A stretch of 64,000 nucleotides of DNA from a virus (IMGVR_UViG_2885686650_000001:730-64729); one strand, 5' to 3'. Counted from the stretch's first letter, positions 1 through 5,268 are shown. Notes: generated by a model not told the origin, from the sequence alone. Program-made: numbers and translations.

Positions 1-702
1 AGCAATAGCCTCACCACGACGCATGCCAGTTGTTAAAACAAGAAATAGATACGCTCTAGCCATTGACCAATCATGATTGATACTCGTATCCTCGTTTGTA
101 ATTGAGTTTAACGCCTTGATAAAATCAATTAACTCAGTACGTTCATAATAATTTTTAGTAACGACTGGGATAAATTCTTTCTTCTTACGTGGGGGCTCAA
201 CACTATCAAACGGATTGCTAGGCATAAATTTCATCCGTACTGCAAATCTAAACATCATTTCGGCATAAGCTGTTACTTTGCGATAGCTGGACATTTTCTT
301 AGCTAAGCTACTCATCCATTGTTGGCACGTTAATATTTCAATTTCTTTGATATACATTTTGCCAAATTTGGGCAAGATATGATTTCTAAATATTCGCTTA
401 GTTTTTAAGGCGGTACTATCTTCCAAGTCACTAACATATATTGGCCACCAAAGATCATACACTTGTTGGACTGTGTAACCGCGTTTACGTTGGACTTGCT
501 TTTCAACTGACTCTTTCTTTTTGTGAGTACCATGTTTTAACTCGTACTTAGCATCATCAAACGCGGTTTTGGCAGCCGTCTTTGTTTTAAAGCCATTGAG
601 GGATGTGTCAATACGTTTACCTGTGTGTGGATCTAGACCAAGATAGCCCTTAACTTTCCAAAGAGATTTTCCATCTTGTGTTTTATAACTTTCTATTTTC
701 AT
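1..702 (-). CDS. int: Tyrosine integrase of prophage 1, 5' part (runs off the window)
   Basis: Manual translation from ATG at 702 (RBS AAGGAG): MKIESYKTQDGKSLWKVKGYLGLDPHTGKR...YLFLVLTTGMRRGEAIA; arm-binding N-terminus and box I TGMR motif. Not in ORF track because it is truncated. Confidence 0.93.
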   Translation of the reverse strand, partial: MKIESYKTQDGKSLWKVKGYLGLDPHTGKRIDTSLNGFKTKTAAKTAFDDAKYELKHGTHKKKESVEKQVQRKRGYTVQQVYDLWWPIYVSDLEDSTALKTKRIFRNHILPKFGKMYIKEIEILTCQQWMSSLAKKMSSYRKVTAYAEMMFRFAVRMKFMPSNPFDSVEPPRKKKEFIPVVTKNYYERTELIDFIKALNSITNEDTSINHDWSMARAYLFLVLTTGMRRGEAIA

Positions 703-724
703 TTTATATTTCTCCTTTATTCTT

Positions 725-755
725 GCTTGCACGCGCTGAATTTAGAGAAAATCAG
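725..755 (+). repeat. Copy 1 of motif CTTGCACGC(R)(Y)TGAA, in the int leader
   Basis: 27/31 match to 7701-7730; 15/16 match to reverse complement of 32779-32794. Confidence 0.85.
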
Positions 756-774
756 GCATCACCTCCTTAAATTG

Positions 775-872
775 TGTTAAAATTATGTATACAAATAGCG
801 TAGCGTATTGCTATGCTGATTTGTCAGTTGACGTATCCCAAACTTTGGTCGGTGAGGGGATACGTCTTTTTT
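775..872 (+). ncRNA. Candidate antisense sRNA unit in front of int1 (extended -10 plus terminator)
   Basis: TGTTAAAAT at 775-783; stem GACGTATCCC(830-839)/GGGATACGTC(857-866) then T6; homologous unit at 34199-34296. Confidence 0.5.
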
Positions 873-2112
873 ATTTGTAAAGATTTAGAATTGCTTTAGA
901 AAATTTATGTGAGAGATACGGTGGCACAGCGTTACCAATTTGTTTAAAAGCACTGGTACGTGAAGTTTCAAAGTAGAAATTATCAGGAAAAGTTTGAATT
1001 CTGGCCGCCTCACGGACAGTAATGGAACGATTCTGCTTTACATCAGGATGAATATAATAGTGACCGTCTTTGCAAATATGAGCGACTAGTGTATGTGATA
1101 CAGCATTACTGTCTAGTGCCTTATATCTGTCTAAGAATGAGTGCTTATTCTTATGAGTCTGGTACTTTTTATCCAATTCATTATAGTGTAAATTAATACC
1201 CTTATTTTTTGCGTCGGCAATTAACTTATAAATTTCCAAATCATTTGGTTGATTAGGACGAGCAATGTTTTGAGTTAGGGGAACTTCAGCAGTCTTTCGA
1301 ATATTAGCTTGGACAAATTTACTTGGCTTTCTATTACTATATGAATTGACCTCTTGTCCACTATGCAATTCTGGAAGATCCTGGAATAGTTCTCCAACTG
1401 TATTAGGTGTTTCATGCAGTGTGTTGAGCTCTTTAAAGAACTCAGAAGGTTCAATAGACCCGTCTGTCCCAAAAATAATTAAACGTTCACGCTTTTGCGG
1501 TACACCGTATTTTGAAGAATCAATGATTTGCTTTTCAAGATGATAACCAGCTTCATTGAATTCACTAATCATTTTTGGAAGTAATGGTTCATCAAACTGA
1601 TCTTTAAACGATAATAGGCCCTTAACGTTCTCGAAGATAAAGAATTTAGGGCGATATTTCTTCAAGAATTCAATGTAATAGCGATATAAATAGATACGTT
1701 CATCCGAATCTTTCTTACTTTTGTTACGAGCTCTACCAACAGTTGAATATGCCTGGCATGGTGGCCCACCAATAATACCATCAATGTTTTTGATATTATT
1801 TTTAGCAATTTCATCATCAATTGTTGAAAAAATACCTGCAATAGTATCAGAGTTTATTTCTTGGTTCAGTGTTTTATTTTGTTGATCTAAGGGGATGTTA
1901 CTGAATAGTTGATCATGATTAATTTTCTTGGTCAAATATTGGCAGTATAAGTCTAGTTTATTATTATTCTTTAGATAATAGTAAGCATCGCGTAGTTTGA
2001 GCGTTTCTGCTGCTGCAATATCCATCTCAACGTGATTGAGAATGTTAAATTCATTTGTTCTAAATCCCTCAGTAAGCCCGCCGGCTCCCGAAAACAGATC
2101 GATTATGTTCAT
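871..2112 (-). CDS. DNA (cytosine-5)-methyltransferase
   Basis: Motifs I DLFSGAGG, IV GGPPCQ, VI FENV, VIII QKRER, X QIGNAVPP. Confidence 0.96.
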   Translation of the reverse strand: MNIIDLFSGAGGLTEGFRTNEFNILNHVEMDIAAAETLKLRDAYYYLKNNNKLDLYCQYLTKKINHDQLFSNIPLDQQNKTLNQEINSDTIAGIFSTIDDEIAKNNIKNIDGIIGGPPCQAYSTVGRARNKSKKDSDERIYLYRYYIEFLKKYRPKFFIFENVKGLLSFKDQFDEPLLPKMISEFNEAGYHLEKQIIDSSKYGVPQKRERLIIFGTDGSIEPSEFFKELNTLHETPNTVGELFQDLPELHSGQEVNSYSNRKPSKFVQANIRKTAEVPLTQNIARPNQPNDLEIYKLIADAKNKGINLHYNELDKKYQTHKNKHSFLDRYKALDSNAVSHTLVAHICKDGHYYIHPDVKQNRSITVREAARIQTFPDNFYFETSRTSAFKQIGNAVPPYLSHKFSKAILNLYK

Positions 2113-2163
2113 TGTGATTCACCTCTTAGACCAGGATATCAGGTTAGAAGATAAAAGTAAACT

Positions 2164-4347
2164 TTATCTTTTAGGGGAAGAACTCTCGCCTTTCAGCACA
2201 TTAATGAAACCCTCCGATAACTCTAAAAAAAGAATGGTATTCTTTGCAAGGTCCTTAATACGACTCTCTGTTAATGATGCTGGATTATGTGCGCCAGAAT
2301 GTCCTATTTTTAATTGATCCCCGAAAGTTATGCCATCACTCATTGGGATAAAAGCACGGAAAAAGTTATCTTTCCTATCACTGTTGGTTAGGCCCAGTTC
2401 GTTTGAAATTTTATTTTGTAGTTCTTTATCTCCCCTAACTTGACTGATTAGGCTATCAATAGCTTGAAAGCCACTTCCCAGACTTTTGTTTTGAAACTTG
2501 TTTGCTTCACTATTCTCCGGTCGAAGTCTTTCTTCAATTTCAACATCTGTAATTGACCTCATGGCCGCGCTAATTACATAATTAAAACTTGTGTCGTTTG
2601 AAACCCATAGGGCGTTTAGTTGCATCATGATGGTCCGAAAGAAGTCATTAGTTTCATTCGATTGAAGTTTAAAGTACTTACCGTTCTTCAAAGGGAAAAG
2701 CTCTGATTTTGAAGTTTTACCGTTTTTTTCAAAACGAAGTATAAAGGTATCAGACCAATTTCCTTTGGGGTATTTAACAACAATACATGTTGATTGAGGA
2801 ACATCACGTTCAGATAATTGACCGTTTAACACCTCATTTCCTTCCGATTCATAAAAAGTAAAGTCGCTCGAGTCCAGTCTTTCACCTGAACTTGAATGTG
2901 ACCTTTCTAAGTCAATATAGTCGAGTAGGTTAACTGATTTAAAACAAGGGATTGGTTTCGCAATTTTTGAACGCCTCAGTTTTATCTGGAAAGGCAATGT
3001 GTGACCACTTTCTGTTGGTTTAATTGAAGAAGTGAAGGATGGCCCATTGGTTTCTTTACTTGTCTTTTGAGCAATTTCTTTTGTGGATGTACCGACGTCA
3101 GGCTGTGTGGACATAACGGTCTTAGGTTTCAAAGCAATTTTTTCAAGTTTCGCTTTCACTTGTGATCGCTCTAAATTAACTTGGACTATAAATTCGTTAA
3201 TAAGATTTTTAAATTCCTCAAAGGATTTTTTAGTCGTTTGTAAGCCCTCACGATTAGTTTTTTCTGTTAAATATTGACTTGAACTATTTGCAAGGACGAT
3301 TTGTCCGGCAGATCGGGTATTTGATATTTTTTTTGAGTTATTTCGTGCTGCGTTCTCTAGTGCTAGCCAATCCTCGAGTCCGTAACCAAATAGTTTAAAG
3401 TTATTTCGGTAAATATTTATTCCTGCATCGTACGATAAAAAATCCTTGGTGATTTTACTAGGTGTAACAGAGCTGTTTTCGTATTGAAGTTGAAGATTGG
3501 ACGGCTCATAAAAGTTAAATAATTTAAAGGTGATATCACCAATTTTGCGTAGCTCAGCTTGTTGCTTTTTAATATAATTTTTTATTTTGGAGAGAGTTTC
3601 ATTGTAACCAATAATATCTGTCATTGTTTCTTTTTCGTCTAGTATTTTTGCGTATGCTAAATGTTTCAGGGTAAAAGACTGCTCATCCCAAGTTAGGTTA
3701 AATGTTGACTCAAGTGTTGCGTACCTCGTTGCTTCGCTAAAGCTCATAAGGTTAGTCGAATCTTTTTCGGAGTCAGGTGAAAGAATATTAATTTCAAAGT
3801 TTGTATCATCCAATAAAAGATTCGTTAGATTTTTTCTTAGCTCATCTATGTGGATAACCTCTGGTAGTATGTCTTTGATTGTCAAAATAGTACCGTTTTT
3901 TTTATTGCTACTAAACGTTAAGACATGAATATTGGCATTTTCAACACTGGTAGCGGTTTCTAATTCAGATTTTAGTAGTTTAAAGTGAGTTTCTATCCCA
4001 GTGGAAATGGTATGTACTTCGATGCTATTTCCTAGAGCAAATAAAGTGAAACGCCCGATTCCTTTACCACCGAGTAAACTAGGATTGTTAGTTTTAAAAT
4101 TAGTTCCGGCCCTAAACCAAGTTTCACTAATGTCTTCTGGTTTAATTCCTTCACCATCATCTGAAATGGTAATCTGTTCAGGAAATTGCGATAAATCAAT
4201 TGTGATTTCAGAGGCTTTAGCATCCTTAGCGTTTTTAATTTGTTCAGCAAAAACGATTGAAAGGTTCTCAGTTAGATTACTTCCTAAGAGTTCTGTCAGA
4301 ACGTTAGGGGCCACTGAAAAGTTTCTTGTTGATATCTCTGGTGCCAT
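2164..4347 (-). CDS. GHKL (MORC/HATPase_c-like) ATPase with S5 fold, linker and an uncharacterised helical C-terminal domain
   Basis: Bergerat-fold motifs EQIKNAKDA, SDDGEGI, GGKGIGRF, GTILTI; C-terminus SAAMRSITD...GHSGAHNP is loosely HEPN-like. Confidence 0.82.
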   Translation of the reverse strand: MAPEISTRNFSVAPNVLTELLGSNLTENLSIVFAEQIKNAKDAKASEITIDLSQFPEQITISDDGEGIKPEDISETWFRAGTNFKTNNPSLLGGKGIGRFTLFALGNSIEVHTISTGIETHFKLLKSELETATSVENANIHVLTFSSNKKNGTILTIKDILPEVIHIDELRKNLTNLLLDDTNFEINILSPDSEKDSTNLMSFSEATRYATLESTFNLTWDEQSFTLKHLAYAKILDEKETMTDIIGYNETLSKIKNYIKKQQAELRKIGDITFKLFNFYEPSNLQLQYENSSVTPSKITKDFLSYDAGINIYRNNFKLFGYGLEDWLALENAARNNSKKISNTRSAGQIVLANSSSQYLTEKTNREGLQTTKKSFEEFKNLINEFIVQVNLERSQVKAKLEKIALKPKTVMSTQPDVGTSTKEIAQKTSKETNGPSFTSSIKPTESGHTLPFQIKLRRSKIAKPIPCFKSVNLLDYIDLERSHSSSGERLDSSDFTFYESEGNEVLNGQLSERDVPQSTCIVVKYPKGNWSDTFILRFEKNGKTSKSELFPLKNGKYFKLQSNETNDFFRTIMMQLNALWVSNDTSFNYVISAAMRSITDVEIEERLRPENSEANKFQNKSLGSGFQAIDSLISQVRGDKELQNKISNELGLTNSDRKDNFFRAFIPMSDGITFGDQLKIGHSGAHNPASLTESRIKDLAKNTILFLELSEGFINVLKGESSSPKR

Positions 4348-4377
4348 TGTCTATTCCTCCAACCCAGACCCAAAGTC

Positions 4378-4437
4378 TGCTATAATATTTTTGTACTGAA
4401 TTACTACCCAAAGACACTGTGCCCGCAGTGCCTTTTT
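4378..4437 (+). ncRNA. Candidate antisense micro-transcript between cI and the ATPase gene
   Basis: TGCTATAAT at 4378-4386; hairpin CACTG-tgcccg-CAGTG (4415-4430) followed by a T-run. Confidence 0.45.
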
Positions 4438-4451
4438 ATTTACATAAATAT

Positions 4452-5228
4452 TTAGAGAATAACAATTCCGTGAATTTCAAATTCATCATCCTTAGTTATT
4501 TCAATTGGCTCATATTTTGGATTAAGTGAAATTAATTCGCACTTATTATCTTGACACCAAAATTTCTTTACATAAGCTTTTCCATTCAAGTAGCCTATAA
4601 TAATTTGGCCACTGTAAGCCTCGGTAGCACTCTTTACAAAAATAATCTGCTGATCAGCAAAAAGTGGTTCCATTGAATCACCGTTAACTAATAAAGCATA
4701 GTCATGTGCTGGGACGTGGCCATGATAAGAAACAACATTATGCTCCTCATCCATTAAGACTTCACCGACGCCGGCACTAGCGGCACCATAGATAGTTACA
4801 TCAGTATATGTATTACTATCTTCATTGATATGATCAACAAGATTAATTACACCATCTTGCTCCTTCAGCTGATTCTGAGCGTAAGTATAGACTTTGTGCT
4901 TACGATTCTGATCTAATTGCCTAATTATTAGAATGTGATCCGATTCTTCGGAAGATATTTCAGATGGTTTAACGTTTGATTGTTCTAGTTCTTGATTATT
5001 AATATCTGATGATGAATTATTATTGTTTGACCAACCCATTAAGAATTGCGGAGTGGTATGAAGAATTTTTGCTATTTCTGAAATAACTGAAATTGGAACT
5101 TTATCTATATCGCCATTTTCATAGCGAAAAATTGTTGATCGAGAGACGCCTAATTTATCGGCTATTAGGTCTGCACTAATATGAAGTACTTTGCGTCTCT
5201 GCTTAATTCTTTCTCCTACTGTGGTCAT
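4452..5228 (-). CDS. cI: CI-like repressor, XRE HTH plus S24 autopeptidase
   Basis: N-terminal HTH; YGAASAG cleavage region, NGDSM catalytic Ser, YVKK catalytic Lys; start placed at ATG 5228 from GGAGGT spacing. Confidence 0.95.
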   Translation of the reverse strand: MTTVGERIKQRRKVLHISADLIADKLGVSRSTIFRYENGDIDKVPISVISEIAKILHTTPQFLMGWSNNNNSSSDINNQELEQSNVKPSEISSEESDHILIIRQLDQNRKHKVYTYAQNQLKEQDGVINLVDHINEDSNTYTDVTIYGAASAGVGEVLMDEEHNVVSYHGHVPAHDYALLVNGDSMEPLFADQQIIFVKSATEAYSGQIIIGYLNGKAYVKKFWCQDNKCELISLNPKYEPIEITKDDEFEIHGIVIL

Positions 5229-5268
5229 AAGATAACGCACCTCCAACAAAGTTAATTATAGTAATATA

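Follow-up and report, generated by a model that had tools for sequence, protein, structure and literature searches.

A prophage cassette pairing a C5-methyltransferase with a MORC-like ATPase that carries a HEPN-like tail: a candidate methylase-guarded defence system

Examination of a 64,000-nucleotide viral sequence (IMGVR_UViG_2885686650_000001:730-64729, the whole of which is called the window below) found a two-gene cassette in the immunity region, between the integrase gene and the gene for a cI-type repressor. The cassette encodes a C5-cytosine DNA methyltransferase, designated P0001, and a 727-residue protein, designated P0002, in which a MORC-like GHKL and S5 ATPase module is joined through an immunoglobulin-like (Ig-like) domain to a HEPN-like helical tail. 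We read the pair as a methylase-guarded defence cassette with the tail as its effector, at a probability of roughly 0.6, and the cassette is probably an addiction module as well. Directly supported are the domain architecture, the intact ATPase motifs, the obligatory partnership with a methylase, the mobile context, and the kinship of the tail, through relatives of P0002, with the defence protein PD-Lambda-5_A. An earlier note, made from the sequence alone, had proposed a methylation-gated restriction or abortive system; the elements of that proposal that can be computed (the ATPase, the methylase pairing, the genomic slot, and the HEPN-like tail) are borne out here, while a role in defence, and the target of the putative effector, are what we infer from them.

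Architecture of the 727-residue protein

The gene for P0002 is an open reading frame (ORF) on the minus strand at 2164..4347, and the only Pfam match in its product is to HATPase_c_3 (E 2e-14, residues 31-130). The GHKL (Bergerat) ATP-binding domain spans residues 1-198 (3754..4347, minus strand) and carries the motifs E35/N39, D63xGxG67, G93GKGIG98 and G152-T153. In 26 sequences, ranging down to 20% identity, motifs I-IV are invariant or nearly so; the conserved ATP-site residues are E35, N39, G65, G67, G93-K95-G96-G98 and G152-T153, and D63 is near-invariant. Given motifs kept over such a range, P0002 is expected to be an active ATPase. The S5-type transducer domain, recognised by structure matches and conservation, follows at residues 199-372 (3232..3753, minus strand), with R314 invariant and R366 near-invariant, and a helical hairpin at residues 373-406 (3130..3231, minus strand; model helices 374-395 and 397-406) closes the ATPase module.

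An AlphaFold2 (AF2) model of residues 1-410, built from 26 aligned relatives, has a predicted local distance difference test score (pLDDT) of 88 and a predicted template modelling score (pTM) of 0.88. In a structure search, its residues 11-405 fit complete GHKL and S5 modules. The top match is MORC3 (Z 21.5 over 283 residues, at 3.1 Å), followed by SMCHD1 (Z 20.6), MORC2 (19.8), GRP94 (19.2), MutL (16.9) and ParE (16.7). Modules of the GyrB/ParE type also fit over residues 11-405, and Hsp90 N-domains superpose on residues 2-196 at Z 14-15. The same search found no extra domain and no nuclease fold in this half of the protein. By its motifs, its modelled fold and its restriction-modification-like (R-M-like) neighbourhood, the N-terminal half is a MORC- or paraMORC-type GHKL and S5 ATPase, an assignment to the type and not to a named subfamily (MORC, paraMORC1-5). 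The whole module (residues 1-400) is also common to proteins of about 750 residues that are labelled sensor histidine kinases and have a second HATPase_c domain at the end (P0022-P0052); these belong to the paraMORC-histidine-kinase class treated in PMC8011034.

Beyond the ATPase module lies a low-complexity linker, rich in Ser, Thr, Lys and Asn and variable in length in the alignment (residues 407-449; 3001..3129, minus strand). It leads to a region, residues 450-727, for which a second AF2 model has a pLDDT of 84.5. The first part of this region, residues 450-545 (2713..3000, minus strand), is an Ig-like beta-sandwich, matched by Ig, fibronectin type III and S-layer structures at Z 6-8 with a root-mean-square deviation of 2-3 Å over about 80 residues. 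The second part, residues 566-722 (2182..2652, minus strand), is the HEPN-like helical domain and candidate effector, assigned from the model, from structure matches and from the PD-Lambda-5_A matches of relatives. The order described in the earlier note, with a MORC-type GHKL and S5 ATPase followed by a low-complexity linker, a beta-rich domain and a helical C-terminus, is thus recovered in full, the ATPase by the match to MORC3 and the remainder in the alignment and the second model.

In a structure search independent of Foldseek, 10 of about 15 matches to the helical domain are HEPN proteins, at Z 6-8, scores that helical bundles can also reach by chance. They include Roquin (4txa, Z 7.9), AbiA (8oz7, 6.9), 1wwp, the sacsin HEPN domain (3o10), a HEPN toxin (8xdj), 4nqf, 2hsb, Csm6 (6tug) and 1ufb. 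R597 and H687 do not vary among 37 helical domains that share about 15-45% identity, N661 and G685 are nearly invariant, and an acidic residue stands at 601, four positions past R597. H687 lies just ahead of the last long helix, in the place of the HEPN histidine, and R597 is on a different helix from it. Because of the invariant Arg, His and Asn together with the HEPN-like fold of the model, the tail is most likely a metal-independent HEPN-type nuclease. Neither model, of residues 1-410 or of residues 450-727, yielded a DNase fold. NCBIfam, PHROGs and PADLOC have no direct match to the tail of P0002. With the model of residues 450-727 as query, Foldseek searches of the PDB, clusters of the AlphaFold database and the ESM Atlas were dominated by the Ig-like domain and gave no significant helical match. 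A protein-atlas feature search on the tail produced weak leads only, to a Met-zincin (0.80) and to the HEPN domain of LsoA (0.76).

Kinship of the tail, through relatives, with PD-lambda-5

The helical domains of the relatives tie the family to PD-lambda-5, a two-gene Escherichia coli prophage system that gave protection from almost every phage tried against it and has been called a compacted 'RM+Abi' (restriction-modification plus abortive infection) system (Vassallo et al. 2022, PMC9519451). A later survey places PD-lambda-5 among HEPN-bearing and DNA-modifying systems (bioRxiv 10.1101/2024.10.26.620412). When scanned alone, 26 of the 37 helical domains match PADLOC PD-Lambda-5_A models, with a best E of 3e-15. 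In one relative, P0060, a stretch of 360 residues aligns with PDLC03996, one of these models (E 5e-16); another relative, P0015, matches eight PD-Lambda-5_A models and is accompanied by a methylase 47% identical to P0001. In the genome of the window itself, PDLC03996 has no match. By hhalign, at a probability of 95% (E 4e-8), the family also takes in the proteins P0012-P0021, which have no Ig-like domain. In two of them, P0013 and P0015 (loci L007 and L006), long tandem low-complexity repeats of the type GSGPT... or PVDEDHKNNN[RK]Q... take the place of the Ig-like domain and separate the ATPase from the helical tail.

At the level of motifs, the likeness is clear in P0091, a PD-Lambda-5_A-like protein encoded in another Bacillota genome. 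The pair AMRSITD and GHSGAHNP in P0002 corresponds to LLRTFIE and FHSYVHN in P0091, and the patterns LRxx[IF]E and HSxxHN are common to the P0002 family and P0091. P0091 (L048:1393-3630) has 511 residues, is encoded beside a D12/Dam-like methylase, and bears an N-terminal EGNRR motif that resembles ParB/Srx domains. The evidence for a ParB-like reading of the PD-Lambda-5_A N-terminus consists of this motif and a match to ParB 4umk at E 0.66. Were it true, two nucleotide-gated DNA clamps, one ParB-like and one GHKL, would drive the same HEPN-like tail.

The two systems are alike in being two-gene prophage cassettes that combine a methyltransferase with a larger protein, and in the HEPN-like helical domain at the C-terminus of that protein, which by way of relatives is of the same family in both. 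They differ in their N-terminal halves, that of P0002 being MORC-like GHKL and S5 and having no relationship to positions 1-208 of PD-Lambda-5_A (P 0.26 when the GHKL profile was compared with P0091 by hhalign), and in the partner methylase, which forms 5-methylcytosine (m5C) in the window but is D12/Dam-like beside P0091. The description of the effector domain in the earlier note as divergent HEPN-like agrees with both the run of HEPN structures and the membership of relatives in the PD-Lambda-5_A C-terminal family. Its description as unrecognised holds in part: Pfam, the PDB and PADLOC offer no direct match, yet relatives link the domain to a validated defence protein.

Methylase partnership and genomic context

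Full-length relatives of P0002 are rare. Seven, at 33-46% identity, were found among 5.8 billion clusters, and a profile of the tail retrieved 43 representatives among 1.84 billion proteins. In every one of the ten related loci examined, the ATPase gene has a DNA methyltransferase gene as its neighbour, the two being tandem or convergent, which upholds the pairing that the earlier note had described as R-M-like. For the near relatives, the partners are m5C methylases of a single clade with a conserved target-recognition domain (TRD); P0001 is 45-61% identical, over its full length including the TRD, to the partner methylases of six related ATPases, against 23-27% for an unrelated SinI-type or HgiDII-partner methylase. 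In the distant branch, the partners are amino-methyltransferases of about 405 residues, which indicates that it is the mark that matters and not the chemistry of m5C.

The surroundings of these loci are those of mobile and defensive DNA. In L001 and L002, the methylase gene beside the ATPase gene is followed by an integrase gene, and L004, L005 and L009 are likewise methylase-paired. L006 and L007 combine a convergent methylase gene with genes for helix-turn-helix repressors, an M78 peptidase and an integrase. A conjugative element, L008, carries the pair alongside MobL, a type IV secretion system coupling protein and a serine recombinase. Two loci are defence islands with a SinI R-M system or McrB (L003 and L045); in L003, from Companilactobacillus suantsaicola, the pair is flanked by the SinI R-M system on one side and by a PLD-helicase gene on the other. 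The prophage slot between integrase and repressor is shared by the window, L006, L007 and L044, and its recurrence in relatives agrees with the earlier view of it as a defence-type location. The obligatory methylase, the exchange of methylase class, and the contexts in mobile elements and defence islands together form the signature of an R-M-like module.

In one metagenomic prophage, where cI and cro lie alongside, the ATPase gene (L044:3476-6955) is broken into pieces of 443, 47 and 242 residues and the adjacent amino-methyltransferase gene is intact. The attack gene seems to have decayed here and the methylase to have been kept, which is how R-M systems decay. Of two apparently standalone helical proteins, P0077 and P0083, one proved to be a fragment cut by the end of a contig and the other a part of a broken gene.

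In the window, integrase, m5C methyltransferase, P0002 and repressor genes are all co-oriented on the minus strand according to ORF calls and domain scans, and the coordinates, orientation and position of the two-gene pair are exactly those given earlier. The methyltransferase gene, for the putative protective partner P0001 of 413 residues, lies at 871..2112 (PF00145, E 8e-61; TIGR00675, E 1e-52). P0001 has as its best PADLOC match the DISARM methylase DrmMII (PDLC02649, E 3e-143, full length), and PADLOC labels it DrmMII or MTase_II and recognises only the GHKL core of the ATPase. Membership in DISARM was rejected, P0001 adjoining only the GHKL gene and the integrase gene, with no search made for drm genes elsewhere in the genome. 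The match could mislead automatic annotation, and it may hint at specificity, as a lead and not a result.

The N-terminal part of a tyrosine integrase (1..732, minus strand; Phage_int_SAM_3, E 3e-15, and Arm-DNA-bind_4) runs off the window edge downstream, and a cI/LexA-type repressor gene (4452..5249, minus strand; Peptidase_S24, E 8e-25; HTH_3, E 6e-10) lies upstream, with a cro-like divergent region beyond it. The interval between integrase and repressor genes holds no further noteworthy ORF. The 51-nucleotide spacer from the ATPase gene to the methyltransferase gene (2113..2163, minus strand) contains a Shine-Dalgarno sequence, AAGAGGTG, ahead of the methyltransferase ATG. The 104-nucleotide spacer between repressor and ATPase genes (4348..4451, minus strand) contains a hairpin at 4415-4430, a strong Shine-Dalgarno sequence, GGAGG, and a candidate weak promoter, TTGGGT-18-TATTAT, which was read by eye and falls below the threshold of a promoter scan. 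Another hairpin, with a 10-bp stem, stands at 830..866, directly 3' of the methyltransferase stop codon. The two hairpins border the cassette, and both have their T-runs on the plus strand, so that they would end antisense transcripts and not the operon itself.

P0001 is the sole product with PF00145 in the 99.99%-complete genome. As the earlier note had it, there is no Vsr gene, here across that whole genome, and no restriction endonuclease or separate nuclease gene was found near the cassette. Near-identical short contigs from window positions 271-4370 occur in public runs from an anaerobic-digester metagenome and a fermentation metagenome. A megablast comparison of the region with phage records gave zero matches.

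Proposed mechanism and competing explanations

Under the proposed mechanism, the m5C methyltransferase would mark resident DNA. P0002 would dimerise on binding ATP, by analogy with MutL, MORC and Hsp90 proteins, and so close as a clamp around DNA. A clamp formed on DNA without the mark would switch on the tail, through a presumed sensing of methylation, and the putative nuclease would then shut down the infected cell or the expression of the invader, following the 'RM+Abi' logic. Cleavage of RNA in particular, as opposed to DNA, is a tentative suggestion for the effector, and one we regard as doubtful.

Several observations weigh against this reading. The presumed attack gene precedes the methylase gene in an operon on the lysogeny side, an awkward start in an unmethylated new host for a simple R-M system; with this order, some delay or trigger must protect the newly lysogenised, unmethylated host. 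The RNA-seq data amount to one contig of 210 nucleotides, within the methylase gene (1073-1282), which does not suffice as evidence of transcription. P0002 belongs to the most divergent subclade, and neither the whole protein nor its helical domain matches a PADLOC PD-Lambda-5_A model; its tie to the family is indirect, through relatives retrieved by the tail profile among the 1.84 billion proteins (P0054, E 2.5e-13; P0060, E 1.9e-9). Pfam matches none of the 37 helical domains and has no direct match to the tail of P0002, and a PDB sequence search with the 37-member profile found no match. Since helical bundles reach Z 6-8 by chance, the structural argument is one of enrichment for a single fold and not of score. 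The canonical HEPN motif Rx4-6H is not conserved, the position 5-7 residues upstream of H687 being K, R, Q or D, so that the earlier statement that this motif is not intact is accurate: its arginine is not fixed. Identity of the tail with Ymh (PF09509) or DUF4145 (PF13643) was rejected, as hhalign comparisons with alignments assembled from genome matches were not significant (P 0.33 and P 0.03, respectively) and covered only the His motif and the last helix. Both comparisons, at those non-significant P values, set H687 on the HEPN histidine.

The closest precedents in kind are the paraMORC ATPases of R-M loci. ParaMORCs found with Dcm have been proposed as R-M components (Iyer 2008, PMC2292703), and paraMORC-HEPN (Ymh) fusions in R-M neighbourhoods have been proposed as analogues of PrrC and RloC (Anantharaman 2013, PMC3710099); the putative REBASE enzymes R.NmeAIP and R.LweSORF291P (PMC2441816) are counted among these ATPases of predicted R-M systems. 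With these the cassette shares a GHKL and S5 ATPase encoded next to a Dcm-type methylase gene on mobile DNA, and a HEPN-type domain at the C-terminus. Unlike the Ymh fusions, it has a tail that is neither Ymh nor DUF4145 by Pfam or hhalign and an inserted Ig-like domain, and unlike the paraMORC R-M loci it lacks a helicase, Vsr or separate nuclease gene. PrrC and RloC resemble P0002, as read here, in placing a HEPN nuclease at the C-terminus under the control of an NTPase domain, and one of them, PrrC, is tied to an R-M system (PMC3710099). However, their ATPase is of the ABC and not the GHKL class, there is no sequence relationship, and PrrC needs a complete type I system where here there is only a methylase. 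The GHKL-Shedu protein VcSduA and Tiamat are validated anti-phage proteins with a GHKL ATPase and a C-terminal nuclease (PMC12137116; bioRxiv 10.64898/2026.09.30.754977), but their effectors are PD-(D/E)xK domains (DUF4263 and DUF3883) and they have no obligatory methylase. Assignment to Tiamat itself was rejected, the TmtA model matching at 17.5 bits over residues 32-113, which is the GHKL core only; a match to the PADLOC model for Druantia was marginal and likewise set aside.

The strongest competing explanation, which we nevertheless consider unlikely, makes P0002 itself a DNA restriction enzyme, ATP-dependent or type II-like, that would cut unmethylated DNA at or near the site of the methylase in the manner of HgiDII and BbrUII; equally unlikely, by the same token, is its corollary that the Ig-like domain and helical tail form a module, new in kind, for recognising and cutting DNA. 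REBASE-type families that combine a GHKL domain at the N-terminus with an m5C partner do exist, and HgiDII is a SalI isoschizomer (PMC2441816). BbrUII/HgiDII systems resemble the cassette in both their N-terminal GHKL domain and their adjacent m5C methylase. The family model NF050001 and two PADLOC REase_II models match the N-terminus of P0002, the convergent order of the two genes in L006 and L007 is typical of type II systems, and GHKL-nuclease fusions with direct immunity are known, VcSduA being one (PMC12137116). The likeness stops at the GHKL domain, however. Against NF050001, P0002 scores 76 bits where the cut-off is 550, over residues 11-261 only, and it was rejected as a member; hhalign against a true BbrUII/HgiDII member, P0088 (759 bits), finds homology over residues 7-161 only, at a probability of 97%. 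The pair therefore matches no characterised type II R-M system. The S5 and tail regions of P0002 are unrelated to BbrUII/HgiDII, and the PD-(D/E)XK-like D...ELK end of P0088 is absent from P0002. For P0088 itself (L010:1489-3453), that end reads GRFDVF...FVMVELK; it has no Pfam match, and the C-terminus was left unassigned in the 2008 classification. Further against DNA restriction by P0002 are the absence of a DNase fold from both models, the HEPN type of the tail's relatives, a superfamily known for RNases, and the fast divergence of the tail beside a conserved methylase TRD, which is odd for two proteins that share a recognition sequence.

Much less probable is a clamp without nuclease activity, in which the MORC-like ATPase would trap, compact or silence unmethylated incoming DNA as eukaryotic MORCs do and the HEPN-like domain would serve only in constitutive dimerisation or in regulation. 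Such a role would suit the best structure matches (MORC3, SMCHD1 and MORC2) and a catalytic arginine that is not fixed in the canonical HEPN position; moreover, GHL ATPases depend on a domain at the C-terminus for dimerisation, and HEPN domains are obligate dimers (bioRxiv 10.64898/2026.09.30.754977). Yet the conservation of R597, H687 and N661 across very divergent sequences suggests chemistry and not packing, and the occurrence of the same tail on a different N-terminal domain in PD-Lambda-5_A is as expected of an effector. We give hardly any credence to a non-defence role, either in T:G mismatch repair after a Dcm-type methylase, with the MutL-like ATPase (Z 16.9) substituting for the Vsr that the genome lacks, or in epigenetic regulation of a prophage in whose lysogeny operon the genes lie, as the amino-methyltransferases of distant relatives create no deamination problem, conjugative elements and defence islands carry the cassette too, the tail has a validated defence protein among its kin, no mismatch-recognition partner is present, and the obligatory partner, class exchange and contexts noted above argue against deamination repair.

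For the preferred reading, of a methylase-guarded cassette with a HEPN-type effector, the kind of architecture is not new: the combination of paraMORC-HEPN with a methylase was already predicted in 2008 and 2013, and GHKL-nuclease fusions are already validated in HgiDII/BbrUII, VcSduA and Tiamat. What is particular here is the joining of a MORC-like module to a PD-Lambda-5_A-type tail by way of an Ig-like domain, in a minimal two-gene form, and the cassette represents a branch that Pfam and PADLOC miss. For prokaryotic MORC and paraMORC ATPases accompanied by methylases, a part in immunity and ancestry of the eukaryotic MORCs were both predicted in 2008 (PMC2292703). In the literature we found no report of how a methylase-linked prokaryotic MORC or paraMORC senses methylation or of what its output is, and no description of the mechanism of PD-lambda-5.

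The two-gene cassette therefore offers a compact model for the way in which a GHKL clamp could make a HEPN-type effector respond to DNA methylation, and for whether such an effector cuts RNA or DNA. A bolder version, possible but in our estimate improbable, holds that this is an R-M system that does not restrict DNA: the MORC-like clamp would read methylation and gate a non-canonical HEPN RNase whose catalytic arginine is supplied from a different helix, and PD-lambda-5 would use the same effector, possibly under a ParB-like clamp. If that were true, 'clamp' and 'effector' would be interchangeable modules of one immune design.

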